IMG/VR virus record: IMGVR_UViG_3300008267_013251
Span: 81,016 to 145,015 of that record
Origin: a virus
Direction: 5' to 3' (one strand)
DNA length: 64,000 nucleotides
The position numbers were made by a program, and so were the translations under genes. The notes under the pieces are model-generated. The model was not told the origin of the DNA. It did not search any database and worked only from the letters and a program-made list of their open reading frames with translations. Positions 24,737 to 62,905 of this stretch are shown here, piece after piece; position 1 is the first letter of the stretch, and each line of letters opens with the position of its first letter.

Positions 24737-25687
24737 TCAAGTAGCTGGTGCTGATGTGATATTCAATATTCCATTTTGTTTCCAACCAACAGAGTTAAAC
24801 AACTCAATTCTATCATCTATGAAGACATTAGGTAAATTTGTTGTTCTGTTTGCTAAACAAGTAGCAGTTTGAATATTCACAAGCAAGCTAAATTCAACCG
24901 AATTAGCAACATATGAAGGGCAGAATATATTTTGTGGCATCCAAACTTGTACATTTGTATTAAGAGCAGCATCTGTGCCAAGATATCTCTTAATAAGTAT
25001 ATTCAATGTCCATATAAACTCTTGATTAAAGTTATCTAAATCATTATTACAATTTATATTAACTATTATTGTCCATTTTTCTGTTGTGCTGCCATCTGCG
25101 TTTCTTCCTTGAAGGTGCGTAGTATGAATGAAATTACCTGATGCTTGATCGTAATAACATGTCAAATTAGGATTGAACGCAATATTGCTGCGTTGACAAA
25201 AACTCGTCAATGCAGAACTTGTATTGAGGTTTGTTTGCAAAGTGAACTTCAAAGGCAAGTTCTTGCAGCCACATTGAGCAATAGATGATGTAGTACTGAG
25301 TGGGTTCAATGCCTGACCGCTGGTGGGAGTGAAGTATGGAACAAAATAGAATATATCACCTATAAATGTACTCGATTGTTCTTGCTCTCCCAAATATGCT
25401 GGCAAATAGGCAGAACCAGATATAAGCATCCCACCAGAACCTGTATAGTATGTTGTTTTTGCTACATCGACTGTTGTAACAGTAGCAACACCACTAACAA
25501 TTGGGCCTCCAAGTATGTTATATAAAGTATATGGAGCATATGGGCTTGCAGATAATAGAGAATATGTACCTATATCAATATCGCCAACGCTTCCTGTATA
25601 AGATGTTATATCTGTGCTGTAAGATAAAAGATATGTTATTGAAGACAAGCCGATTGTTGAGCCTCCAGTAAAATAGCCTTTATAACC
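24737..25687 (-). CDS. C-terminal part of the giant fibre-like protein (frameshifted continuation)
   Basis: Frame open from 25687 reads [26 protein letters not shown], the same repeat as the upstream ORF; also shares the Y.GSG.L...GSA motif. Confidence 0.65.
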
Positions 25688-28600
25688 TCAGTACCGTAAT
25701 TTAATTTTTCAGTTGATGCAATAAAACCACTTGCACCTTGGCCTGCTGTCATATAGCCAACAAAGAAATTACCATGACAAGAAGCTGAAAAAGCCCTTGG
25801 TATTTTCAAATCTGCTGATGTAACACCACCAACAGTTTCTACACTATATGTAATTTTATCTGTTGTAACATATACTGAAAACAACCCTGTATATCCTGCC
25901 GAAAAATATCCTCTCGCATCGTTGCCGTCTAGACTGCATATGCCATAACGAGCAGGGCTAGACAAATTAGCGCCAGCAAGAGATGCTATCCCATCTGTTG
26001 TGTAATTTATTCTTTCAAAAGATGAGAATATTGTTGATCCAGCGATGTCCAAACCGCCAGCTATATACCCAAAAGAACTTCCTTGAGATACTGCTCCCGG
26101 TCCAAATCTACTTGTCAACATATTACTAGAATTTGCAGAAAAAGTTCCAGTTGAATATAGTATTTTGTCTGCTCTGTTTGATGATATTGATACACCACCA
26201 ATACCACCTAACATATATCCTTTAGTTTGGTTGCCCGTGCAGCCTACACCACCATATCTAGCTTGTGACAAAGAATTAGATGTATATGCGTCCATCACAT
26301 TTGTTGCGTATATTATTTTATAAATACTGGATACTTGTGTTGTGTTATAGTTTGATCCAGTCGATCCCCCTGCAAAGTAACCTGCCGTTGCACCACTACC
26401 CGGATTTATTTTCGGATAATGCAAATAATCTCCATATATGCTGCCAAGATAATTTGCAGAACCGAAAACGATCAAGGAGCCGGAACCTACATATTCAGAA
26501 TTTTCAAGTATAGCAGTACCAACTAAAGATATATTTTCAACTATGTCATACGCAAGGCAGTAGTCGGCACATTCACTATCAAAACAAAACGGAGTCTCTT
26601 CCAACTGAGGACAAGATTCATTTAAAATTCCTTGCTCTATCAAATACTGTTCATCATTTTTATAGACTGGTTTTGTGAACTTTTGGAACTTCTTAATTGG
26701 CCAATTCCAGTTTTGTTTTTTCAATTGTTCGCAAGCCTCACGGGGACTTCTCGCAATCAAGGTTACAATAGACCTTTTCCTACATTCGGGAGATTCTTCA
26801 TTGAATGGACCATTACAGTTAGTTAAGTCTAAGCACTCTCCTTCGATTCTATAACCATAATAAATTTCTTGTGCAATACTGTAAAATATAGGCAGGGAAA
26901 CATTTATAACTGCTAATACTTTATAAGTTATCGGCAAAGAAAGTGTAAAGCTATAATTATTATAAGTGCCACCTAAAGTCACTCCACCTGAAGATGTATA
27001 TGCATATGAATTACATGAAAAAGTTGCAGAGCCATATATTATTATTGTTCCCTGTGTGTCTATATTTGTATTAATTATGAATTGAGCATTTCCAGAAATT
27101 AATATGTTGCCTTGTGATAAGTATATTGGTTGCGGAACTGTGATCTGAGAAACCGCAGCCAAAGCATATCTTGCTTGAGACAAAACAACAGGCGATAAAG
27201 ATGAAATTACATCTGTGGAAAATATAATTTTATCAATTACATCCGAAATAGTAGAAGAACTCCTTCCTCCACCTATAAAACCTTTTGCGTTAGAGTATCC
27301 ACCTTTGGTTAAATTAACCCCAGCCAACGCATATCTTCCAGAACTAAGCACATTTGTCAGAGCAGATGTTGTGTCAACAGCAAAAGCTATGGTATCAACG
27401 GAATCATAATTTTCTCCAATCCCACCTAAAAAGTAACCCTTATCGAATCTGTTTCCTATACCAGTTAAATATCTCTTGCCATCTGTCAAGCTTGCTGATT
27501 CAGTATTTCTACTTATTTCAGTAGTATAGTAGAATATTTCTGTCAACCTTGTGCCGAAGCCTGCTTCAATGCTGCCTCCACCAACATATCCCTTGTAACT
27601 ATTTCCATCTATCGTACCCATGGCATTTCTTGCTGTCTCCAAGTTCGCACTTGTCAACGCAAGTTTTGTTTCTGTGGCAAACAATACTTTGATAGTATTT
27701 TCTGTTTCACTACCTGTGAAACCGCCAACGAAGTAACCTTTAGATATACCTTGTGATATTCCACCTAGTGTGTCAGTAACAGTATCTAAATCCAAACTTG
27801 TCACTAAATCAACTACATCTGTAGAATATGTGAGCCTTTCTGTAGAAAGAATGTAAGCACCAGTATTGCCACCAGAAAAGTAACCAACCGTTATGTTTTC
27901 TGATAAACCCGCTTGTTTTTCTCTGGCAACATTAAATGCTGCTGTCGTACTTACCAAAGCCTCAGTCGTATAATCTATTTTATCAAAAGTTGACACTACG
28001 GTTCCGGCGACCGAACTTCCTCCAGCAAAGTACCCATAATCTCCATCTCCAATTAGAGGTGGAAAATCAAATTCAACAAAAACCCTGCTCACAGCTGAGA
28101 GGCCTGCCCTTGGCTGATCAAGAGCTTGATCTGATAGTAGCGATAAGGCATTAGTAGCAAAATCAAGTCTATATGTAGTGTCAACTATCGTGTTTTCTTG
28201 ATTTCCTCCTGAAAAATAACCTCTACTGTAATAATCCGATGCGCCAGCAGAACTTGATACTCTTTGCTGTAAATTTACAGTAGTCAAAAGACTTGTTACT
28301 TGTGTATTATAATTTACCTCATAAATCCTATTAGACAAAATTGCAGCGCCTGTGTCTCCACCAGCAAGATATCCTTTATTGTTGTTTCCATCTATGCTTA
28401 TCATAGCGGATGTGGCAATTTCAATCTTTGCCGTGGTAACAGCATTTAGCGTATCGTTCGAGTAATTCAAAAACTCTGCTGTTTGCAGCATGGTCCCGCT
28501 ACTGTAACCACCTATAAAATATCCGTCCAACCAAGCGTGAGATACTGATCCCATGTATCTTTTTTGTTCGGATAATACAGGAGATGTAAGAGAATTAGTT

Positions 28601-31600
28601 GTGTCAATTGAATAGTCTATCTTATCAAAAGTATCTACCTGAGCAGAGGAATAGCCTCCAGCGTAATAGCCGTATGCGCTGTTGCCATGCAAAGATGCCA
28701 TTCCCGATCTTATAGTAGATAAATCTGCTGTAGTGACAGCAGCAATAGTATCATCTGCATATGCGATGCGATCTGTTGTATTTACAGATGCTCCTGTGTA
28801 GCCTCCTGAAATATATCCTTTAGAATAGGAGTTTGTAGTGCCCGCTGAGTAAACCCTTGCCTGCGACAGGGTGGCCACAACAGCCGACATAGTTTCTGTG
28901 TAGTAGAGCATCCTGTCTACTTTGTTACTAGCTGATGTCTGTATTCCACCTGCGAAATAAGCAGAAGCTCCAAATGTGTTTATAGGACTAGGAACTGGAC
29001 TAGGTTCAGGTGCTGGCGCTGGGCTCGGAGATGGTGATGGGCTCGGAGACGGTGATGGGCTCGGAGATGGTGATGGGCTCGGAGATGGTGATGGGCTCGG
29101 AGATGGCGATGGGCTCGGAGACGGTGTTGGGCTCGGAGACGGTGTAGGTGTGGGTGTCGGTGTCGGGACGGGCACAGGAGTCGGAGGAGTACCATATAAA
29201 GCTAAAAATCCGTTCTGAAAAGTACTAATTTCAGTCCATTGAGTAGTAATGTCTGCAACAGTATTGACAGGGGAAGTATATTGTAACTGATTGTCTGTTC
29301 CCAAAGCACCGTAATATCCACTTCCCCAAACCCAAAGAGAGCCATCAGACTTTATAGCGCAAGCATTTGAAGAATTGACTCCATATTTTACTTGCACCCA
29401 TGTATTACCTCCGATGTATGTTTGAACTGGCGATGATTTACTTGAAGTAGTACCATCACCCAAAACACCGCTTGCCCCAGCCCCCCAACAAAATAATTGT
29501 CCATTATTTCTAATAGCTGCCGTATTTGAAAAACCACAAGACACATAGACCCATTGCTCACCTGCGACCAACAAGTCTGGAATAATTCTGTCTGCTGTGT
29601 CGTTTAATCCAAGCTGACCTTGGTCATTTCTTCCCCAAACATATAATTCATTCGAAGGATAAGCAATCGCAGCAGCATGATAGTAGCCACACGAAACTTG
29701 GCTCCATTGTGAATTTGTTGCTTCTTGCACAGGAGAACTCTGACTTACTCCATGACCACTAGGCAGAAGGATACCATTGCCTAATTGCCCCCAGTAATTA
29801 TCTCCCCAGAGCCAAAGACTTTTGTCACTAGCTTTTATTGCAGCTGTAAAATTTGCTCCAGCTGAAACAAATTTCCAATCATATGAAGTATCTAAAAGAC
29901 TCGGACTTAATACATTTGTTGTATATCCATTTCCACATTGTCCGAAATAATTGTAGCCCCATGTCCACAAAGACTGATCGTTCCCTATTCCAGTAGTATG
30001 AAATCCACCACAAGATATCATACTCCAATTAGAAGCGCCAGTAGTTACATTGACAGGACTATTAACAAAAGGACCGAAATTACCACCTAACTGACGAGAA
30101 CCATTTGCTCCCCACATCCACAACTTATCGTAGGAATCTATTGCTCCAGCATGTAAGTTGCCAGAAGATATACCTTTCCATGATGATCCCGCTGCTATAT
30201 TTTGAACAGGGGAACTTCTACTAACTATTGTTCCATCACCTAAAGTTCCATTTTGATTGTAACCAGAACCCCAAATATTACTTCCTTCTGTCGGGGTCGG
30301 AGTAGGAGTCGGAGATGGAGAAGGTGTTGGCAAGGGCAAAATGCCCAAGCCTGCTGAACCATAGGCATTTCCAGAAACTTTAAACCATTGATTGCCACCA
30401 GCAATAGTCTCGACAGGAGAGTCATAAGAAACATTATTATTTGTTCCAAGCTGCCCAAAATTATTTTGACCCCAATTCCAGAGACTATTATCAGTCTTCA
30501 AGGCTCCAGTCCAATTGCTGCCAGCATCAACAGCAGTCCAGTTATATCCTCCCGCTTGGGTCTGTACCGGAGAACTAAAAGCTAATGTAGAGCCAGTATA
30601 ATTAACCCCACACGCTCCATAAATGTTACTTCCCCAACACCATAGTTGTCCTGTTCGGGTAATTGCAGCTAAGTGTGCATCTCCAGCAGCAATAGTACTC
30701 CAAGGCCCAGTCAAAATAGCCACATTTATTGGTGAACTTTTACTAACAACAGAATCATCTCCAAGTTGACCTATGTAGTTGTATCCCCAAGTGTAAAGAG
30801 TGCCGTCTGTCTTAAGAGCAGCACTAAACCTATCTCCAGCTGCAACATATTGCCAATCTGTATCTATGCCAATTTGAACAGGGCTGCTTCTATTCGTGGT
30901 TGTCGAATCACCAAGGGCTCCAAATTCATTGATTCCCCATGCCCATAATTTACCAAAGACATCAACAGCCAAAGTGTGATTTTTGCCAACTGAAACATCA
31001 GCAATATCAACTTTTGTTGAAGAAAGTAAATTTACTGGATTTGTATTATTTCTACCGCATTCACCAAATGTATTGTTACCAGCCATGTAAAGAATGGCTG
31101 TGTTTGAAATAGCAGCAAAATTCGTATCCCCAGCTGATATTTTATTGAATTTCAAGCCACCAAGCTGAATTGGAATAGAAGAGTTTGTAGGACCAAGTGC
31201 GCTATAACCATAAACTGGATATCCCCACCCATACAGGTATCTGTTGGAATCAAGAGCAATTTTGTATGAGTTTCCTACATCTACATCAACCCAATCTTGT
31301 ATGAGTCCTCCAACCTGTACTGGTGAGCTTCTTGCAATTACGCCCGAAGCTGCGCTAGTATTATCTCCAAGCTCTCCATTTAAATTTGTTCCCCAAGTAT
31401 AAATCTGATATGTTGGTGTTGGTTCTGGTGGTGCGGGAGTTGATTCTGGCTCAGGGGCTGGTGTTGGTGTTGGTACTGGAACAGGTGCGGGCACAGGTGA
31501 GGGAGATGGACTAGGTGATGGAGAAGGGCATGTGTAAATTGTTCCAATTACACCAACTCCAATTCGATATCCCGGTGGCACCTCTCGCAACATACTGCTG

Positions 31601-32136
31601 TATGTTACCCGTAATTTTCGTGTTTCCTCATTGAAAAAAATCGGAGGGTCACCAAATTTCTCACGATTGCGTCTTAATGTTTCTCCCCTTTCAGGTTCAG
31701 GCACTCTTTGACATAAAAGTTGCCCTAAAAGCCAACCTTCGCAAACCTTGGTTCCTTCTTCTGTCCATATTGGATACCCACCTGACTGAGTTGGCTCCAA
31801 CCTACTTACTCTCAATAAGGAAGTAGTTCCCCCTCGACACGATGGATAAGGCTCTAATCCCTCAAGATTGCATTCTCTTGGACCAATCTCGTATAACTGA
31901 ATACATCCACAACAATTATTGTCAAAAGTTATGTCAAAACCTACACTCGTTGCATCATCACCTAATGGAAATATTTCCCATAGTTCACGGGTACCGCTGG
32001 GCACAATGTTAAGACTGGAACACGCCGGTTCATTAATAAGAGTTTCTGGATTAGGGCTATAATTTGGATTCAGTTGTGCCCGAAAAGTACGGACTTCATT
32101 AAAGAATTCTCCAAAATAAAAACCATTGCAAGCCAT
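25636..32136 (-). CDS. giant fibre/adhesin-like protein: two RCC1-repeat blocks, Pro/Ser/Thr linkers, kelch-like GYF.GG repeats
   Basis: Repeated LW.WG.N..GQLG....SSPVQ units and ~46-aa GYFAGG...D.I.Y.T units. Confidence 0.85.
29021..29190. repeat. 18-bp tandem repeat GGGCTCGGAGA(T/C)GGTGAT encoding a (Ser-Pro)n/(Thr-Pro)n linker
   Basis: About 7 near-identical units followed by PT codons. Confidence 0.9.
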
Positions 32137-54010: not shown

Positions 54011-55432
54011 CTAATTTGAAAATTTTAACTTAATTTGTTTTCCACCTCTAGCCTCGCTCAAAAATCTTGAGAAAAGCAAACCATGTCGTATCGGATCAAC
54101 ATCGGTGACACCCAATAAATAAAGAATCAAAGACCCACCACCAGAACCTCTTCCGGGGCCAACAGCCTCCCTTCCATCTCCCCAACCCAAAAGCTCAGGA
54201 CAAACTCTTCTGGCCTCATCGGTCATCATCTTCTGGACTAGAAAGTAACTAGCAAACCCCTTTCGTGTGATTATATCAAATTCTTCCGCAACTCGTTTGC
54301 CGTATTCCCCTTGTGGCTTGATGTTTCTAAACCGCAATCCATCTGCGACAGCCTGCGCTAGAGCTTTCTTTTCTTCCTCTTGTAGTGGAAATTTTATGCT
54401 TCTGTCTAGTTCAACGCCCTTGGCTTTTTGACAAATAGCAACTGTAGTGGCCTTGGCTTCTTCAAATATTTCGAGTGGTATGACATCACTATATTTTTTT
54501 TGCCACATCTCATTAAGCTCTTCTTCTGTTTTCATCCACAAATTACTGTCTTGGAGTTCAAAAAAATCTTGATTTTCATTTTCTTCAATCATCTTTTGTA
54601 TTTCTGGCAAAGTTCTTTTTGTCTGAATCATCAGCATCAATCTTTGATAATGACTATCTTCCTGTTTGCAATAATGGCAGTCGTTAGTAAGAATAATTGG
54701 AAGATTATACTTATCTTTCATTTTCAAAATGAAAACATCATATGGTTTTTGCTTTTTGAAATCCAACATCATAATTTCTAAGTAAAACTGACCTTTGAAC
54801 ATGTTGATATATCTTACTAAAACTTCTTCAGCTGCTTCCTCCCCTTTTTTATCGAATGTTCTGCCTATTTCACTTGCATAACAGCAAGATGTAAAAATCA
54901 ATCCTTCTTTATGTTTTTGAAGCATCTCATAGTTTACACGGGGTTTCGCATAGAAACCCTTCAGAAAACCATAAGATGATAATTGAACAAGATTGGAATA
55001 ACCTTGTTTAGATGTGGCAATCGCAAGTAAGTGACTGCCTTTTACTTTGAATTCTTCAAGCTCTTCAGGACCAAGTTGGTCCATGAATTTCTTTCTACTC
55101 TCTTCATCAGGAGTAGGCTCGGAGTGCATGCGGTTGACATATAACTCACAGGCAAAAATTGCACTAAGCTTATTTTTTCCGTGTTGTTCACAAATTTGTT
55201 CACAAGCTTTTACTTGTCTGGGAACAGCACCGAGCATGCCATGATCACTTATGCAGAGAAACTGACCATGGTGGTGCCAATGCTCTGCGTATTCTTCAAC
55301 TTGGCCAAATCCATCTAAAAGACTATAGTTTTTTGCGCCCCCGGCATTAAATTATGCCGGGGGCAGTATGTCTGTGTGAAGATGTAGGTGTTCAAAACCT
55401 ACTATCTTCACACTTGACCCTTGGTTGGACAT
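54011..55432 (-). CDS. dnaE: DNA polymerase III alpha, N-terminal half (PHP domain to GRGS/palm start), interrupted by a 42-nt stop-containing insert
   Basis: ATG 55432 (or GTG 55411) gives MSNQGSSVKIVGFEHLHLHTD-[insert]-YSLLDG...ISDHG...CELY...HLL...TSCC...NDCHY...GPGRGS...DP...LLFSRFL, all in one frame with a single TAA at 55354-55352. Confidence 0.9.
55328..55369 (-). other. 42-nt hairpin insertion with in-frame stop (candidate translational bypass element)
   Basis: ATACTGCCCCCGGCATAATTTAATGCCGGGGGCGCAAAAAAC between codons GAC and TAT; 11-bp stem, 6-nt loop. Confidence 0.9.
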
Positions 55433-56415
55433 GATTTTACCTTAAAACCTTTTGATTGAAGCCAGTTTTCAAAAGCACAGGCATCATAGTTGTCATTTTT
55501 AACACAGTTCTCAACAACTGTCAATGGCTGTAAATTTTCCAAACAATTAATTAATTTAATGTCTCTAATGCCATAGTCTAAAAATGCTTTAATAGGAAAA
55601 ATATGATCAAGGTGCCATTTTTTTCCTATTAATTTATGCCAGTTTTTGTGATTAAATATGTGTTCCCGTAGTTGCACAGCGGTATAGCCCAACAATTCTT
55701 TTGTTTTTTTGTTTTTATTTATTTTTAAATATCTTATGCAAATGTTAATCATCGATCTGCATTTCTGTCTAAACAAATCATTAGTCCTTTTCTTTTCACG
55801 ATCAGATATCCATTCATAATGATGAGAACCACTTCTTCCTAACAAAGAACAAGCAGGACACCTAGGAACTTTTTGGAAATTATTTAAAGTTTTTTTATGA
55901 TTCTGTCCGCATTTACAAATAAATTCTACTGGCAGTCTTGCTTTTTTATATAAGCCAATTAATTTGCATCCTTGATCTTTGAAAAATTTTGCAACTTGAT
56001 CTTGTGATAAAGTTTGCTTCTTTGAATTTTTTATGTTACCACATTTTTTGCATCTATTACCTTTTCTAAAACTATCAAATACTATTTTAGATTTATTGCC
56101 ACACTCACAAATATAATCTAATTTAGCTCTGGCATTTATGTAATTTTCACTTAGAAGATAACAGTTCCTATCTTCAAAAAATTTTTTGACATAGTCATAT
56201 TTAAGTTTGAATTTATTTTTTAAACAATTTTTACATCTGCCTCCTTGCATAAAATTACTTAGTTTTATATAAGAAATATTTCTGCAAACACAAATATATT
56301 TTAATTTATTTTTTGCATTACAATACCTGTCCAATAATTTGCACCCAGCATCTTCAAAAACTTTGACAACAAAATCTTGATCATATTTTTTACCTTGCGC
56401 CACAACCCACCTCAA
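55408..56415 (-). CDS. free-standing HNH-type (putative homing) endonuclease with three Zn-finger repeats
   Basis: Three F...(G/N)C.L...Y..A.....IC.C....RC..C repeats plus WHLDHIFP...NLQPL...EN..K; start may be GTG 56403. Confidence 0.8.
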   Translation of the reverse strand: MRWVVAQGKKYDQDFVVKVFEDAGCKLLDRYCNAKNKLKYICVCRNISYIKLSNFMQGGRCKNCLKNKFKLKYDYVKKFFEDRNCYLLSENYINARAKLDYICECGNKSKIVFDSFRKGNRCKKCGNIKNSKKQTLSQDQVAKFFKDQGCKLIGLYKKARLPVEFICKCGQNHKKTLNNFQKVPRCPACSLLGRSGSHHYEWISDREKKRTNDLFRQKCRSMINICIRYLKINKNKKTKELLGYTAVQLREHIFNHKNWHKLIGKKWHLDHIFPIKAFLDYGIRDIKLINCLENLQPLTVVENCVKNDNYDACAFENWLQSKGFKVKSCPTKGQV

Positions 56416-56468: not shown

Positions 56469-58079
56469 TCAACTTCTTGTCAAACCGAATTCCCTTTTAT
56501 ACTGTTCTCTTGTCAATTGAATTACATTTGACCCGTCATTCTCATCGCAATAAAACATGAGTTCTTCTTGGTTTTCATCTTTGGTGACCAGAAGAACTGA
56601 TTTGCCAGAAACAGCATTTAATGATTTCAAAGTTTCATCAAGGTACGGCATATACAAAGTTCTGCCTTCCCATTGATGCTCTAAAAGCATTATGTTCCTA
56701 CCAAGATGATTGTGGTCGGTCATCCTAATATCTGGTAAACCTCTGTTGGAATATCTTTGAATGAGCTTTTTCTTAATTTTCTTGGCATCCTTTGATTCAA
56801 TTACTACTTCACCATTAGGATACTTTTTCCATTCAAAGAACTGATACTTTTCGCAAAAATCCTGAGTAAAGAATTCATTGATCAAATTGACATCATCATA
56901 TATCTTTACAACTTCAAAAACTTTATTTTTACCCTCGCCAAGCTTCAAATCCCAGTTTTCTTTTTCTTTGAAACTAGCACAATTGTCGTAATCAGAACCA
57001 AACCTTCCTTTATCCCATCTTTCCTCAATATCTATCAACAAATTAAACCCAAGCTTATATGGGTTCATACTGTACTTACCACCAAGAACACCAGCCTTAT
57101 GAATCGAATACTCTACAATTCCTTCATCATGACTCTTTTGACCCAAAGCACAAAGCCCTTGTTTGGCTATCAAATGGTAGTCAACATAGCTGGCAAATCC
57201 TTCATTCGCCATTTTTGTCATGCCTTGTGGAGCAAAATAGTGTGCTTCGTCATAAAGCATACTCATGATGTCTGATTGCCAAGGCTTGAGATTGCAGTTA
57301 TCTTTTATCCATCCATAAATATCTCTTTCTGGAGACCGGGGTATTCCCAAATCTTCAATTTTTTCTTCTCTTTCAATACGATACTTCTCTGACTTAATAT
57401 ATTCTTTTGTATTGATCCAATCTTCCATATAATTTCTATCTTTGTCTATTTTAATCCTTTTTGGATAACGATATTTTCTTTCATCTCTAACAATAGGATT
57501 TTTTACTTGTCTAGTTTCCCAAGCTTTGGATGGATCAATCAAAGTTTCGATTCTTAATAAATTATCAATAAATTCAGTTACTTTTTCTTTCCCCCACCTT
57601 GCCATATACTTTCTGATTCTGCTGCCATGGTTAGCTAGCTCATTAATCATATTCTGGGATGTGTGTTTGAAATAGTGGTTATTCTTGAAAAAGTGGTTGT
57701 GCCCAGTAGCATGAGCAATAACAGTAACATTATCAAGAAGGGTATTGCTATTAAGGCAATAAATGTAGCAAGGATTTGTATTGAGAACCATTTCATAAAT
57801 GCGATGCATTCCATACATGTAACCTCGTTGCAGTTCTTCGTACTCCATACCCCAACGCCAATGGGGATATCTTACTGGAAACCCTCCATAAGCTGCAACT
57901 TCGGAAATTTCGTCATAGGTAAGCATTTGAACCACGGTGGGATAGAAATCCAATCCGAAGTCTGTGCATGCCTTTAAAATATCTGGAATTAAAACCTTCA
58001 ATTCATGTGGTATAGAAACACCGGGAGTGGTAGCACTCCCTTGCAGAATTGAAGAGCCATACATGAATTTGTCAGTCAT
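56469..58079 (-). CDS. spoVR: SpoVR/YcgB family protein
   Basis: GFPVRYPHWRWG.EY, IYEMV.N..P, HA.GHNHFFKNN, TKMANEGFASY and NPYKLG. Confidence 0.95.
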   Translation of the reverse strand: MTDKFMYGSSILQGSATTPGVSIPHELKVLIPDILKACTDFGLDFYPTVVQMLTYDEISEVAAYGGFPVRYPHWRWGMEYEELQRGYMYGMHRIYEMVLNTNPCYIYCLNSNTLLDNVTVIAHATGHNHFFKNNHYFKHTSQNMINELANHGSRIRKYMARWGKEKVTEFIDNLLRIETLIDPSKAWETRQVKNPIVRDERKYRYPKRIKIDKDRNYMEDWINTKEYIKSEKYRIEREEKIEDLGIPRSPERDIYGWIKDNCNLKPWQSDIMSMLYDEAHYFAPQGMTKMANEGFASYVDYHLIAKQGLCALGQKSHDEGIVEYSIHKAGVLGGKYSMNPYKLGFNLLIDIEERWDKGRFGSDYDNCASFKEKENWDLKLGEGKNKVFEVVKIYDDVNLINEFFTQDFCEKYQFFEWKKYPNGEVVIESKDAKKIKKKLIQRYSNRGLPDIRMTDHNHLGRNIMLLEHQWEGRTLYMPYLDETLKSLNAVSGKSVLLVTKDENQEELMFYCDENDGSNVIQLTREQYKREFGLTRS

Positions 58080-58086
58080 CGCAACC

Positions 58087-59268
58087 TCAAGATATCTTTG
58101 TTTTACCAAGCAAGTCTTTAATAGCTTTTAAAACGGCCTCGTTTCTTGCCTCACCACTTAGGTTGGAGGAAGAATTTTCTATTTCAGCCGTCTTTATATT
58201 TTCACCAAGTGTATCATCCTCTTTAGCATCTCTGACTGCCTCCAAAACTGATCCACGATAGTCGTATGCAAAAATCTGCGTAATTCCAACAAAATTGACG
58301 ACTTTTTCAGGGAATTCTTTTTTCAAAGTCTGAATAAAAACTTCGTTGTCATTTATTTGATTTTCACCATCGGTAAAGTAAAACACATAAATATTCCATT
58401 TATTTGGCGGGAACCTATTTTCAAATTGTTTGGCAATTAATTTTAGTGAGGAACTGCAAACTGTTCCACCACCAAATCTATATTTGTAAAATTTTTGTTC
58501 GTCAACTTCTTGTGCTTGTGTATCGTGCCATACAAACATTCTTTCAACACGCTTATAAAATCTCTTTATCCATACATCAATCCACCAAGCCATATCTGAA
58601 ACTATTTCGCATTTTGCAGTATCCATGCTGGCGCTTCCATCTCTTGCATAAATTATCAATGCATTAGTAGATGGGTTTTTGATCTCTTTGTATTGTCTAT
58701 ACCTCTTGTCACTATTAATTGGCAGAATCAAACGAACTGGGTCTTTATACCCCGGCACTTGATGCAACTGATTGATTTCCCCCGTGCTACACATTCTTTT
58801 CAACGCAGTAAGCATGGTTCTTCTAGTATGCCTAAGCGACTCTGGGCCAACTAAAGAAATATTATTGTATTTAATTTTTATATCTTCAAAAGTATTATCT
58901 TCTTTCGGATTTAAATCAGGAAGTTCCAATTCATCTTGTAAGAATTTAAGAATTTCTTCCAAATCTAAACTGATTGTGATGCCTTCTGCCTCTTCCGAGC
59001 CAGCTTTATTACCTTTGCCTTTTCCCTTTGGATCATCTCTTCCGATAACATCTCCCGGCTTTCCATCTCCTCGTCCAACACCTGTGCCGTTGTTACCGAA
59101 AACAATATGTGGAATGTCAATTTTTGGAATGGAAATTGAAATTTTCCCATTCTTCCCTCTGCTTCTAAAAATATTTCCCGATTTTATAAATTTTTTAAGC
59201 TCCTTACGAATTTTACCAGAAACAACATCTCGAAATTCTTTATGGTCTTCATTTATTCTACGAGGAAT
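58087..59268 (-). CDS. yeaH: YeaH/YhbH (DUF444) vWA-domain protein, probable AUU start
   Basis: Frame open from ATT 59268 (IPRRINEDHKEFRDVVSGKIRKEL, GVGRG.G..GD); L..ELELP.L.PK, DGSASM, GGGT..SS, WNIY.FYFTDGEN. Confidence 0.9.
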   Translation of the reverse strand: MPRRINEDHKEFRDVVSGKIRKELKKFIKSGNIFRSRGKNGKISISIPKIDIPHIVFGNNGTGVGRGDGKPGDVIGRDDPKGKGKGNKAGSEEAEGITISLDLEEILKFLQDELELPDLNPKEDNTFEDIKIKYNNISLVGPESLRHTRRTMLTALKRMCSTGEINQLHQVPGYKDPVRLILPINSDKRYRQYKEIKNPSTNALIIYARDGSASMDTAKCEIVSDMAWWIDVWIKRFYKRVERMFVWHDTQAQEVDEQKFYKYRFGGGTVCSSSLKLIAKQFENRFPPNKWNIYVFYFTDGENQINDNEVFIQTLKKEFPEKVVNFVGITQIFAYDYRGSVLEAVRDAKEDDTLGENIKTAEIENSSSNLSGEARNEAVLKAIKDLLGKTKIS

Positions 59269-59350
59269 AAGTCACCTCTCTTTCAGTTTCCTTTAAGTAT
59301 ACTTCTATGCAACCATGTTTTGCAAATTAATTTTCATCAAAATATATACG

Positions 59351-59388
59351 AAAAAACCAGAACCATTAGACAAATCTAACGGTTCTGG
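59351..59388 (-). terminator. intrinsic terminator
   Basis: CCAGAACCGTTAGA-TTTG-TCTAATGGTTCTGG-TTTTTT on the minus strand. Confidence 0.8.
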
Positions 59389-59407
59389 CTCTGTCCTAAA
59401 AATGCAC

Positions 59408-60220
59408 TCATTGAACAATATTAAAAAAGAAAAGCTGAACCAATCTGGCCTTACTTGCATCTTCGACAGATAAGCCCTCATAAGTGCTGGCAGAATGTAT
59501 CAGCTTTGCATCCCAAATTGCTAACCTATTATAAACAGCGCCGACCTTATCACATAGCTCCCAATTATCTGGATGTACAAAATTATATTGATTGTATATT
59601 TCTGAATCTGCTTTTTGAATCGCTTCTTGGTTGGCAAACTTGTGCGACTCTAGTGGATTAGCTGGAGGTCTACGGCATCCATGTTTCTTGCTTTTCCAGA
59701 AACTTGTGCCAGCAGTTATAGGGGCATCAGGTGTTAAGTATATTGCAGCTGCATAGTTTTGAGCATCACTATGGTATACCAAGGGGTCTTGAAAACCTGT
59801 GATTTGGAAACAGCCATTAGCAATCTGGAACAGCCAGCCCTCAATTTGTGTACCCAGAAGTCTTTCAAACTCTTCCTTTAAATAAGGCCACAAAAACCTT
59901 TCTGTGGTCCTTTTACCCTTATACCAACGAAGGTCTTCGTGAAACTCTTGTTCAAGAGCCATCCCTCTAATATCATCAGGATTTTTGTAAAAATTGTCAA
60001 CTACAAGCAAATGTGGATTTCTTTTGTTGAAAATATTATGATTTACCGAAAATGAACTAGAAAAATTTAAATCTTTTTCCAAGACCCACATAGGAAGATC
60101 GACATCTACTGGCCTGACATAATACTTAGGCAAACCATCTAGGCCTTGGCCAATCTTTTCAACTGTACAATCTTGTTTAGAAAACCGTACTTTTTGGCCT
60201 ACAGAAAATTTAGGATTCAT
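59408..60220 (-). CDS. DUF6445-like 2OG-Fe(II) oxygenase
   Basis: VVDNFY.NPD, H.D...AAAIYL.P, GTSFW, NRL...AKLIH and RLVQLFF. Confidence 0.78.
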   Translation of the reverse strand: MNPKFSVGQKVRFSKQDCTVEKIGQGLDGLPKYYVRPVDVDLPMWVLEKDLNFSSSFSVNHNIFNKRNPHLLVVDNFYKNPDDIRGMALEQEFHEDLRWYKGKRTTERFLWPYLKEEFERLLGTQIEGWLFQIANGCFQITGFQDPLVYHSDAQNYAAAIYLTPDAPITAGTSFWKSKKHGCRRPPANPLESHKFANQEAIQKADSEIYNQYNFVHPDNWELCDKVGAVYNRLAIWDAKLIHSASTYEGLSVEDASKARLVQLFFFNIVQ

Positions 60221-60239
60221 TATTTTTACCCTTTCGCTT

Positions 60240-60593
60240 CTAATTTGAATTAAATTCTAAAATTATGACAGAATCAACAACTATGACTTGCTTTCCAAGA
60301 ATATTAGTTATTTGACCAACTACTTTTACTGCTTTTTCTTGTTTTTCTGCTCGATCTAGCAAAACTTTTTGTTGTGGATTTGTAACAATTAACTGATGTT
60401 TATACATGACGGCATTCGGAAATTTTCCGACTGGCATATGACTAAGTGTTAAAATGTTCTTGTCATATTCAACATAGCCAGAAAAAGTTTTAGTTGGATA
60501 ATTTTCTGAATCGAATTGACTAAAAATATCAAGTGGGCGTTTTTGTAAATCTGCTGTATTAATAAAACAGGTCAGCAACAAAAACGCCCACAT
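60240..60593 (-). CDS. hypothetical protein with hydrophobic N-terminus
   Basis: MWAFLLLTCF. Confidence 0.6.
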   Translation of the reverse strand: MWAFLLLTCFINTADLQKRPLDIFSQFDSENYPTKTFSGYVEYDKNILTLSHMPVGKFPNAVMYKHQLIVTNPQQKVLLDRAEKQEKAVKVVGQITNILGKQVIVVDSVIILEFNSN

Positions 60594-60598
60594 TTTGA

Positions 60599-60826
60599 TT
60601 ACTCTCCAGAGTTAAAAGACAGATCAAAGCCTTTATCTGTCTCAAGCGGGGATGAGAACTTCATGTTCAAGAAAAAGTCTCGTAGCTCGTTGGGCAGGCT
60701 ATTGATTAGCTCACCCAAGGTTGCATCAGAGGCCCATCCGTTCATGATATGCTCATCGAGGTCTTCAAGCAACTGCCTAGATTTGGCAGAATTCAACCAA
60801 GGATTCTTCAAATTAGCTGCACTCAT
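60599..60826 (-). CDS. hypothetical protein
   Basis: AAGGAG SD. Confidence 0.65.
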   Translation of the reverse strand: MSAANLKNPWLNSAKSRQLLEDLDEHIMNGWASDATLGELINSLPNELRDFFLNMKFSSPLETDKGFDLSFNSGE

Positions 60827-60835
60827 GTTTGCTCC

Positions 60836-62905
60836 TTATTCTTCTGCTAAGTCACCACGGGCAAATATGGACCCAACATAATCTAGAACATCCCTTGCGG
60901 ATTGTTCGTTGTATCCATATTCTTTCATCCTCTCAATTATAGCATCAATCTTTTCCTGAATCTTCGGATCAACAACAGAACTTCCAGAAACATGCAAAGC
61001 AGATAACTTAATATGATCTTTAGTATCTTCAAACAACTTCATCTCGAAAGCTTTTTTCAGTAAAGGAGAAGAGTCCCAAGCAAAAGTTTTCTTCTTGTGG
61101 CTCAATTCACCGATGAAAGCAGCAATCATTCTTCTGAAATCATCGACTGCGTTTTCAGCAACATCAATTTTTGTTTCAATGTTACGCATCAGTCGCTCAT
61201 CAGGCTGCTCCTCACGGCCAGTATATGGATTCTTTACTTTAGACTTGTTGATATAAGCCATCAAGTTGTCTATATAGTTTGAACAAAGTCTAACAACTGC
61301 TTCCTCATCACCCACAAGTGCTTTTTGAACCTCCGCTTTCAGAATCTCATCAAGCTTATTCTTGGCCAAAGTAATACAGTTAGTATACTGTTTAATCTGG
61401 TCTTTGTTTGTAATCAAACTATGGTTTTCAAGACCATCCATCAAACTGTTAAGAACCATGAATGGGTTAATGTAATCATGCCTATCAGAAAGGCAATTAG
61501 CAATTTTATCTTGCACATACCTTGCGCTAACGCCACCAGCCATACCTTCATCTGGATACTTATCTCTTAGCTCTTTGACAGAGTCTTCGGTCCAGCCGGG
61601 GAGCATCTTATCATTGTATAGCTCGGCTTTTTCTACAAGACTTAGCTTACCGTCCTTATCGTCTTGAAGTCGAGTAAGAATTGCCCACAGCGCAGCAACC
61701 TCCAAAGTATGAGGTGCTACATGCTGACGAACTTTGCCGTTTGAGTAGTCTTGTTCTAAAACTTTAATTTCGTCATCCCACTTCAATAAATATGGGACAT
61801 CAATCTTAACAGTTCTGTCTCGCAAAGCTTCCATAAATGGATTGTTTTTGAGTTTTTCAAATTCAGGTTGATTAGTATGGCCAAGAATTGCCATATCAAC
61901 TCTAATCTGCGAAAACTTTTTGGGTTTGATTTGTCTTTCTTGCGATGCACCCAAAAGGTCATATAGGAAAGCTTGCTCTAATTTGAGCATTTCAATAAAT
62001 TCAACAACGCCACGGTTACCAACGCATAACTCTCCATCAAAGCTGAAAGCTCTGGGATCGGAGTCGCTTCCAAAATGTGGGATTTTTGCGAAGTTAATGT
62101 CACCAGTCAGTTCAGTTGAATCTTGATTCTTTTCATCTTTCGGCTGGAAAGTAGCAATTCCCACTCTATCACTTTCGGAATGTGTCAAGCGAATCACACG
62201 AATGTGATTAGTAACGACTTTAAGCCAATCACCATCATACTTCTTTAAAAGCCTTTGCATGAATAGCTTGCACCTTGGGTCAAGCTCTCCATCGACATTC
62301 AAAGAATACAAAGTAGCCAAATCTTTTTGGTCTGCTTGATCTCTGTGTATTTTGTTGAGATCAGCTAGCACCTCTTGTCGCATATCCTCTGGCATCAAGC
62401 GCAAAGGCTCTTCATGCATAGGGCAGCAGTCAGTATCGGAAGTGTAAATACCATCTTGTCCAGTTGGTAAATTGACCCACTTGAAAGAATACCAAGCTCC
62501 CTCATTTGTACGACTATATTTTTCTAACCCTTTTTTAAGCAATCTGCAAATGGTACTCTTGGATGAACCAACAGGACCATGTAGCAAGAGAATTCTTTTT
62601 TCTGTACCGTAAAACCCAGCAGCACCTTTAATATGTTTCATAAAACGGTCTAGAGTTTCCTCCAAACCAAAAATAGGAATATCCAGATCGTCAAAAAAGT
62701 TGTAATGTGTAAGTATGTTGCGATATCTTTCGACTTCTCTGGTGCCTTTTGCGACAACCATATCATAAAGTCTTTGATATGCAGTTCTTATCAGCTTGGG
62801 ATTTTCATAACACTTTTCGAGATACTCTTGAAAAGACATCTCTTCATTGATTGCTGCATATTCTGTTTTGTTAAATTTTTGTGCTACTTGTTCGAGTTTG
62901 CTCAT
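60836..62905 (-). CDS. prkA: PrkA/YeaG AAA+ ATPase (annotated serine kinase family)
   Basis: AYQRLYDM, GPVGSSKST, CPMHEEPL, PKDEKNQDSTELTG, SDPRAF.FDGE..V.NRG, EALRDR, H.APH.L and G.SARY. Confidence 0.96.
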   Translation of the reverse strand: MSKLEQVAQKFNKTEYAAINEEMSFQEYLEKCYENPKLIRTAYQRLYDMVVAKGTREVERYRNILTHYNFFDDLDIPIFGLEETLDRFMKHIKGAAGFYGTEKRILLLHGPVGSSKSTICRLLKKGLEKYSRTNEGAWYSFKWVNLPTGQDGIYTSDTDCCPMHEEPLRLMPEDMRQEVLADLNKIHRDQADQKDLATLYSLNVDGELDPRCKLFMQRLLKKYDGDWLKVVTNHIRVIRLTHSESDRVGIATFQPKDEKNQDSTELTGDINFAKIPHFGSDSDPRAFSFDGELCVGNRGVVEFIEMLKLEQAFLYDLLGASQERQIKPKKFSQIRVDMAILGHTNQPEFEKLKNNPFMEALRDRTVKIDVPYLLKWDDEIKVLEQDYSNGKVRQHVAPHTLEVAALWAILTRLQDDKDGKLSLVEKAELYNDKMLPGWTEDSVKELRDKYPDEGMAGGVSARYVQDKIANCLSDRHDYINPFMVLNSLMDGLENHSLITNKDQIKQYTNCITLAKNKLDEILKAEVQKALVGDEEAVVRLCSNYIDNLMAYINKSKVKNPYTGREEQPDERLMRNIETKIDVAENAVDDFRRMIAAFIGELSHKKKTFAWDSSPLLKKAFEMKLFEDTKDHIKLSALHVSGSSVVDPKIQEKIDAIIERMKEYGYNEQSARDVLDYVGSIFARGDLAEE

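Follow-up and report, generated by a model that had tools for sequence, protein, structure and literature searches.

A putative homing cassette of an HNH nuclease gene and a candidate bypassed coding gap in dnaE of uncultured giant phages

Programmed translational bypassing has so far had one well-studied phage example, gene 60 of T4, in which a 50-nucleotide (nt) segment skipped in translation lies within the element of the HNH homing endonuclease MobA (bioRxiv 10.1101/2022.08.31.505936). In T4, the coding gap protects against MobA and persists after loss of the nuclease, which is itself replaceable, and the gene 60 cassette was called 'unique' and confined to the topoisomerase gene by Manning and Atkins (10.1101/2022.08.31.505936), who cite Bonocora et al. 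(2011). Pairing of the mRNA on the exit side of the ribosome was proposed to drive gene 60 bypassing (10.1101/2024.12.09.627546). Here we analyze a 64,000-nt stretch (the window) of the IMG/VR virus record IMGVR_UViG_3300008267_013251, a 145-kb contig, in which an HNH-type gene overlaps the start of dnaE-N, the gene for the N-terminal part of the polymerase DnaE, and a 42-nt hairpin interrupts dnaE-N shortly downstream. The HNH gene and the hairpin probably constitute one mobile homing cassette, the hairpin being a coding gap that ribosomes would bypass. Two further kinds of described systems are comparable to this locus, namely collaborative homing, in which a free-standing endonuclease acts together with a group I intron lacking an open reading frame (ORF), as in cyanophage psbA/F-CphI and T-even nrdB/MobE, and the mitochondrial 'byp' elements of Magnusiomyces, which are short GC-rich coding inserts skipped in translation.

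SpoVR, the HNH-type ORF, and dnaE-N are all encoded on the minus strand, as are all genes of the region (coordinates are those of the window). The HNH-type ORF (56415-55408), encoding 335 amino acids (aa), follows its 5' neighbor SpoVR (58109-56469), and its stop codon (55410-55408) is located inside the start of dnaE-N, the two genes sharing a GTGA overlap. The 5' segment of dnaE-N (55433-55370), from the start to the GAC codon at 55372-55370, encodes MSNQGSSVKIVGFEHLHLHTD. Its start codon is either ATG 55433, the counterpart of which is kept in-frame in the other four alleles with a hairpin of the window type, or GTG 55411 within the GTGA overlap. In the dnaE frame this segment is followed by 14 codons, including TAA (55354-55352) at the top of the hairpin, and then by YSLLDG and the remaining PHP domain. 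The gap formed by these codons is exactly 42 nt long (55369-55328), begins 38 nt past the HNH stop codon, and separates the Asp and Tyr codons of the PHP motif HLHLHTD|YSLLDG; its deletion gives back the canonical HLHLHTD-YSLLDG. The anatomy described in the first-pass annotation, that is, an HNH gene with three zinc-finger repeats that overlaps the dnaE-N start and ends close to a 42-nt insert in the most conserved codons of its neighbor, was thus confirmed in each part. The last gap codon, AAC (55330-55328), is near-cognate to GAC and is the proposed landing site. The downstream body of dnaE-N (55327-54011) is an intact ORF that comprises the remaining PHP domain and the first third of the palm (Pfam matches to PHP, E=1.6e-20, and DNA_pol3_alpha, E=6.9e-22), and no further breaks were found in this body among 63 relatives with 49-90% identity.

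The insert contains a GC-rich hairpin (55364-55337) composed of a C-rich 5' arm, a 6-nt loop, and a G-rich 3' arm, with a stem of 11-12 base pairs (bp). The 141-nt region has a minimum free energy (MFE) of -56.6 kcal/mol, compared with -30.0 +/- 3.8 for its shuffles (z = -7.0). The predicted stem is subject to covariation, as related loci, designated here by L numbers, have a compensatory C-G to U-A change (L017) and a G.U pair (L008). The hairpin is the most GC-rich one of the 145-kb contig and is present there in a single copy, and hairpins of the window type were found in a pattern scan of IMG/VR only at the dnaE site; on both counts, a repeated hairpin resembling a miniature inverted-repeat transposable element (MITE) or a repetitive extragenic palindrome (REP) was rejected. 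No Rfam match was obtained for the insert of the window or L001, and the group I intron core model RF00028 has no match in these two, whereas it has matches in L045 and L057.

The 5' ends of related dnaE genes were collected from IMG/VR by a protein-seeded scan (63 loci), an HNH-seeded scan (80 loci), and a search with a degenerate DNA pattern for GFEHLHLH (80 stretches). Removal of duplicates resulted in 75 unique classifiable 5' ends, which are not independent samples. Forty of these alleles are uninterrupted and 35 are interrupted, all within the same 21 nt and in four different ways, and the dnaE bodies are intact in the 35 gapped alleles. Short inserts of 5, 6, 7, or 8 nt directly after the third His codon are the most common (22 alleles, 18 distinct take-off/landing types) and always start with TAG or TGA. 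Hairpin inserts of 40-47 nt directly after the Asp codon were found in 8 alleles and belong to three unrelated sequence types: the window type (42 nt in the window, 40 nt in L058, L068, and L017, and 41 nt in L008), the L019/L195 type, and the L130 type. Three alleles (L038, L042, and L043) have a stop-hop, CTT-TAA-CTT between FSxL and DG, with an insert of 6 nt. The remaining two alleles have dnaE split between FSL and LDG by an ORF-less group I intron (L045:3767-3992 and L057:3769-3996; RF00028, at 102 bits in one and 91 bits in the other), and the intron site is the position of the CTT-TAA-CTT insert. In L057, HNH is located directly upstream of the intron-split dnaE, which is the arrangement of collaborative homing. 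The intact allele L041 contains the stop-hop cassette leader of L038 and has neither the 6-nt insert nor HNH; it represents either the ancestral state or a reverted cassette. As for the hosts of these alleles, the virus record of the window is estimated to be approximately one-third complete, which points to a giant phage; no cultured-phage relatives were found, the closest entry in GenBank being that of an uncultured 595-kb phage whose motif is intact.

The presence of HNH immediately upstream of dnaE was scored with a hidden Markov model of the HNH family, full genes and remnants both being counted. Across the 75 alleles, HNH is present in 14, reduced to a remnant in 6, and absent from 55, and sister alleles differ. 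A full or remnant HNH was observed upstream of almost one-half of the interrupted alleles (17/35) and of few uninterrupted ones (3/40; Fisher p=6.6e-5). The DnaE-N tree requires at least 19 changes of the interruption state and at least 15 changes of HNH presence. In 14 phylogenetically independent pairs of alleles that differ in interruption, HNH differs in the same way in 6.9 pairs and in the opposite way in 0.0 (sign test, median p=0.016, or 0.008 with remnants detected at the nucleotide level counted). The hairpin of the window type always has upstream of it either HNH (the window, L058, and L068) or a decayed 3' tail of HNH, which in L017 has a weak score and in L008 was read by eye. Nucleotide comparison also revealed remnants of the HNH 3' end in gapped alleles without HNH, e.g., L013/15 and L006/9. 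The HNH gene and the insert are therefore not independently distributed in relatives, which was the check proposed for the claim that the two form a co-inherited cassette, and both the allele counts and the independent pairs support that claim. The breaks in HNH-bearing alleles include the window-type hairpin, the L130 hairpin (beside a truncated HNH), short stop-led inserts, a stop-hop, and a group I intron (RF00028, 102 bits); that the same motif is broken in several ways in such alleles fits a nuclease site in the motif.

Identity profiles in sliding windows, in which the cassette was defined as the HNH 3' end, the dnaE 5' segment, and the hairpin, are mosaic. The window and L017 are 83/77% identical in the cassette and 50-65% identical in the downstream dnaE, whereas L017 and its DnaE sister L009 are 57% identical in the cassette and 85-92% identical downstream. 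Similarly, the window and L068 have 97/90% identity in the cassette vs 58-77% in the downstream dnaE. The window and its sister L002 (90% aa identity) differ from upstream of dnaE to approximately +140 nt, and are 82-92% identical downstream. As read from these profiles, all three parts of the cassette are transferred jointly from one divergent dnaE background to another. In L058, the hairpin of the window is kept and HNH is only 44% identical.

The HNH ORF encodes three C-x-C...C-x2-C zinc-finger repeats and a C-terminal H..N..N core. It matches the 'HNH endonuclease' family phrog_559 (E=6e-24), the matched part being the zinc-finger region. No Pfam family reaches the cut-off, and the sub-cut-off matches in the family are GmrSD_C (E=0.006) and HNH_4 (E=0.13), in one member each. 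Residues D270, H271, N294, and N303 are invariant in an alignment of seven family members, and the core follows the pattern W-H-x-D-H-I-F-P ... N-L-x-P ... E-N-x-x-K. Fold matches of residues 196-325 are weak (Z 2.5-4.7) and enriched for HNH and beta-beta-alpha-Me nucleases, including CAD, PacI, Cas9 HNH, and GVE2 HNH. A PDB sequence search with the protein gave no match, and a Foldseek search with the whole model returned only polo-box proteins, which were judged spurious. On the basis of the motif, the protein is assigned a putative HNH (beta-beta-alpha-Me) core, and it is most plausibly a free-standing homing endonuclease. The ORF is more AT-rich than its flanks (GC content 0.24-0.31 vs 0.33-0.46). 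In the family tree, the dnaE-adjacent HNHs largely form one clade inside a larger family, other members of which adjoin primase, clamp-loader, and RecA genes; a quick check revealed no coding gaps beside these genes or beside an unknown gene of 160-230 aa.

A further predicted RNA structure precedes the gap. In the window, this 5' stem-loop (55413-55374) pairs the start region with the (H)LHLH codons, and its 3' arm stops 1 nt short of the proposed take-off codon. For the 48 nt up to and including the third His codon, the MFE averaged over unique alleles is -5.9 kcal/mol in intact alleles (n=39), -7.5 kcal/mol in intron alleles (n=2), -16.1 kcal/mol in hairpin-gap alleles (n=6), and -21.3 kcal/mol in short-gap alleles (n=18). 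The intact alleles differ from both the short-gap (Mann-Whitney p=1.8e-9) and the hairpin-gap ones (p=1.1e-4), and the predicted stem between the start region and the (H)LHLH codons was found only in gapped alleles. The 14-bp helix of the 18 short-gap (class B) alleles is 88.7% paired, compared with 52% for the same columns in intact alleles; four of its pairs have double changes, and the observed covariation was reached in 0/500 shuffles. A compensatory A-U to G-C change also distinguishes the stem of the window from that of L017/L008. The intact allele L033 encodes the same MKVEI...HLHLH without the pairing, and thus the stem results from synonymous codon choice. The stem is a property of the gap rather than of the nuclease, since HNH-bearing alleles that have an intron or are uninterrupted lack it. 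The stem shifts with the gap, its 3' arm reaching as far as the His codon in short-gap alleles and up to or next to the Asp codon in each of the three hairpin types; the stop-hop alleles have a different, long-range stem that ends just before the Leu take-off codon. Taken with the hairpin, mRNA structures that are predicted to be stimulatory are found both 5' of the take-off codon and at the gap.

The lengths of the gaps limit the ways in which they can be crossed. The homologous gaps of 40, 41, and 42 nt, together with L017 and L008, which lack the TAA of the window and have no stop in the entry frame, cannot all be explained by read-through or by a fixed frameshift. The 40- and 41-nt homologs consequently rule out stop read-through of the in-frame 42 nt as a general explanation, and neither quadruplet decoding nor a single frameshift can account for one site having gaps of 5, 6, 7, and 8 nt. 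The codons at the two ends of the gap follow a rule. In 26 of the 27 unique variants, the last gap codon can pair at two or more of three positions with the tRNA of the codon preceding the gap (random expectation 0.25-0.28), and four variants have fully cognate pairs, including the His pairs CAY in L077 and L157. Of the 18 types with a His take-off, 15 have xAY as the last gap codon, TAY forming a G.U pair at the first position, while the hairpin gaps have GAY before the gap and AAC or GAA at its end. The wobble bases of the two codons vary independently, which fits a tRNA constraint better than exact DNA duplication. A stop codon directly follows the take-off codon in all 18 short-gap types, in the stop-hops, and in L130, where UGA follows GAC and a downstream-frame TAA limits resumption to the last three gap codons. 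In the window, GAC is followed by AUA, and UAA appears five codons later.

In the mechanism that we propose for the cassette, the HNH nuclease would cut cassette-less dnaE within the approximately 21 bp encoding H|TD|FSx|LDG, and repair from a cassette-bearing co-infecting genome would copy the HNH gene, the dnaE 5' segment, and the gap; the gap would split the recognition site of the nuclease, so the carrier would be protected. The polymerase would still be made through ribosome bypass of the gap, to which three comparative patterns point: the last-codon rule, the 5' stem-loop confined to gapped alleles, and the shift of this stem with the gap. A ribosome starting at 55433 would read approximately 21 codons to GAC 55372-55370. 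With this codon in the P site, the GC hairpin, 6 nt beyond it, would block the mRNA entrance, and peptidyl-tRNA-Asp would unpair from GAC. The 5' stem-loop would re-fold as its 3' arm exits the ribosome and would thereby favor forward sliding of the mRNA, until the tRNA pairs again, now with AAC 55330-55328; translation would continue from TAT 55327 and yield HLHLHTD-YSLLDG. More speculatively, the G-rich 3' arm upstream of the landing codon, a feature of all three hairpin types, could act in a Shine-Dalgarno-like manner.

Several observations weigh against this interpretation. On the side of the nuclease, L098 has an intact-looking HNH beside the canonical uninterrupted motif, the HNH-bearing L071 (F to R) and L002 (HLHCHSH) have substitutions in the motif and no gap, and L070 and L075 have HNH beside an intact motif in a more distant dnaE type. 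Many gapped alleles, about half, have no HNH, and the non-independence of the 75 alleles bears on the counts. Membership in the HNH group is based on the motif, the PHROG match of the zinc fingers, and the weak fold matches, the Pfam matches being below the cut-off. On the side of translation, the GAC/AAC pair of the window is only near-cognate (2/3 positions), no stop or evidently rare codon follows GAC, and the gap also contains two GCA codons that form a fully cognate pair. A repair scar, in the form of a short direct repeat, could account for part of the last-codon rule. The nascent chain is approximately 21 aa long, which makes an exit-tunnel signal of the gene 60 type unlikely. Finally, in the short-gap allele L074 (L074:3304-3363) the 5' motif is decayed (GLELLHLH, and TD replaced by TH) and an ATG opens the downstream frame; translation may simply restart there, the gap perhaps being no longer bypassed, and loss of the N-terminal strand may thus be tolerated in some lineages.

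The state of L074 is also what would be expected if no recoding took place at all, an explanation that we consider unlikely. The insert would then be a DNA-level scar or immunity mark, translation would restart downstream of it, and DnaE-N would work either without its first beta-strand or with a separate peptide of 21-26 aa. Such a restart agrees with the AUG that the hairpins of L058 and L068 contain in the frame of the body, with the fact that this DnaE is a two-piece protein already, and with the catalytic inertness of some DnaE PHP domains. Nonetheless, re-initiation was rejected because the downstream frame does not consistently offer a start codon, and the first one in the window, ATG 55237, would remove two more PHP motifs. 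In addition, the HLHLH segment is kept, with mostly synonymous differences, and an absence of recoding would leave unexplained the gap-specific stem-loop that tracks the gap, as well as the last-codon rule.

The fully cognate pair within the gap of the window allows a shorter hop in the same cassette, which seems improbable to us. The ribosome would stall at UAA with GCA 55357-55355 in the P site, and tRNA-Ala would re-pair at GCA 55336-55334, a hop of 21 nt. The exact match of the two codons and the stop directly after the first suit this hop, and L058 and L068, with gaps of 40 nt, have GCG in the right downstream frame, while L008 has GCA in both places. However, the take-off position is occupied by GUA in L017, no such pair exists in L019 or L130, and the latter has its UGA directly after GAC. 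Each of the hairpin types also has a 5' stem-loop that extends to the Asp codon. Moreover, the product would retain seven residues, ILPPAKN, between metal-binding residues of the PHP motif, with the junction HTDILPPAKNYSL instead of HTD-YSL.

We attach rather little credence to the view that HNH and the hairpin are unrelated neighbors, the hairpin being a regulatory element or terminator, or dnaE a decaying pseudogene, although HNH is missing from one-half of the gapped alleles and a gap from three of the alleles that bear HNH. A terminator was rejected, since no terminator-like site and no U-tract after the hairpin were found on either strand. The hairpin is located inside the most conserved codons, which are followed by intact bodies in all 35 gapped alleles, the association of HNH with the gap survives phylogenetic control, and the gapped alleles without HNH include those with remnants of its 3' end. 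Excision of the insert at the RNA level, whether as a micro-intron or through processing of the hairpin followed by ligation, is highly improbable, for all the stability of the hairpin and the true group I intron that relatives have approximately 12 nt downstream (FSL|LDG), since the insert matches no Rfam family, the 5-8-nt gaps at the same motif are below the size of any known splicing, and the stop-first and last-codon patterns point to the ribosome.

The other half of the polymerase is encoded separately, by dnaE-C (51073-48542, minus strand), which is located approximately 2.9 kb downstream of dnaE-N and comprises the rest of the palm, the fingers, and HhH according to Pfam. The split lies inside the palm domain, at position 98 of the Pfam DNA_pol3_alpha profile, and the two halves are separated by four unrelated genes (two 2OG-Fe(II) oxygenase-like, one DUF3431, and one unknown). 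Inspection of the break between dnaE-N and dnaE-C revealed no intein motifs. Some relatives (L071, L048/L090, and L098) have an unsplit dnaE ORF of more than 800 aa, and intein-like ends (…VHNC) are present inside dnaE-N of L051 and L061.

Upstream of dnaE, SpoVR forms a module with PrkA and DUF444 (YeaH-like) at 56469-62905 on the minus strand (Pfam E 1e-81 for PrkA, 1e-47 for DUF444, and 4e-101 for SpoVR), which is conserved at this position in most relatives. Several SpoVR homologs are unusually long (940-1071 aa vs 525-546 aa elsewhere; e.g., L013:1-3216, L022:1-2823, and L064:392-3427) due to an insertion of approximately 380 aa near residue 310; these insertions are probably inteins. Full-length tmRNA genes (RF00023, 100-130 bits) were found a few kb downstream of dnaE-N in related giant phages (L008:6498-6850, L019:5887-6230, and L045:7703-8061), whereas neither ARAGORN nor Rfam detected a tmRNA in the window. 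The window also encodes a 2166-aa protein with many RCC1 repeats (25636-32136, minus strand; PF25390, E=2.5e-131), which is unusual for a phage.

Considering all alleles together, we lean slightly toward the view that dnaE of giant phages harbors a diverse, horizontally moving family of nuclease-linked bypass cassettes, which would represent a second natural phage bypass system, evolved independently of gene 60 and far more varied. The family would include three unrelated hairpin gaps of 40-47 nt, at least 18 short stop-led gaps of 5-8 nt, and the stop-hops; in each cassette, a 5' stem-loop created by synonymous codons would end at the take-off codon, and no long nascent-peptide signal would be involved. 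A literature search found no report of bypassing in dnaE. If this view is true, an independent family in another essential gene provides dozens of naturally occurring variants that differ in gap length, take-off codon, and RNA structure, evolution has arrived repeatedly at the combination of a homing nuclease and a coding gap, and a compact system of approximately 140 nt exists for exit-side mRNA folding that drives sliding without a nascent-peptide signal. It also matters for annotation, as gene callers truncate such dnaE genes or label them pseudogenes.

The dnaE cassettes share features with several of the described systems. Like the byps, they are short GC-rich inserts in coding DNA; to our knowledge, byps are not linked to nuclease genes. 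The CTT-TAA-CTT inserts of the stop-hop alleles resemble the classical Leu stop-hop, and short tRNA hops over stop codons in E. coli are among the subjects of Weiss et al. (1987). The E. coli hops are artificial or low-level, whereas the dnaE gaps occur naturally, are conserved, and are associated with both a 5' stem-loop and HNH. As in collaborative homing, a nuclease gene is located beside a conserved gene whose target site is split by a function-restoring element, and L057 is an exact case of it; unlike in collaborative homing, the splitting element of the window is a 42-nt hairpin and not a ribozyme.

The closest similarity is to T4 MobA/gene 60. In both, an HNH gene adjoins a non-coding gap in highly conserved DNA of a replication enzyme, and the gap is kept in relatives after loss of the nuclease; in L058, the nuclease was swapped while the hairpin remained the same. 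Both also have a stem-loop 5' of the take-off codon and a hairpin at or after it, which for dnaE are predicted structures. The proposed take-off and landing codons of dnaE are likewise related, in the window at 2/3 positions, and many variants, though not the window, have a stop at the gap start, as in gene 60. The differences are as follows. The nuclease gene of the dnaE cassette is located upstream of the interrupted gene and does not split it. The gap lies 12-21 codons into the ORF, so that no long nascent-peptide signal is possible, and its length is 5-8, 6, or 40-47 nt. The proposed take-off codon encodes His, Asp, or Leu instead of the Gly of gene 60, with an often near-cognate landing codon, and the 5' stem-loop, which includes the start region, lies directly next to the take-off codon. 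A BLASTP comparison of HNH with T4 gp60.1, a defective mobA remnant, found no detectable similarity (E=1.9). The first-pass annotation had suggested an independent example in a different gene and phage lineage; in agreement with this, the interrupted gene encodes the PHP motif of dnaE and not a topoisomerase, and the carriers are uncultured giant phages. From the sequences compared, the dnaE cassette is best described as an analogue of the MobA/gene 60 element, and not as its homolog or a member of it.

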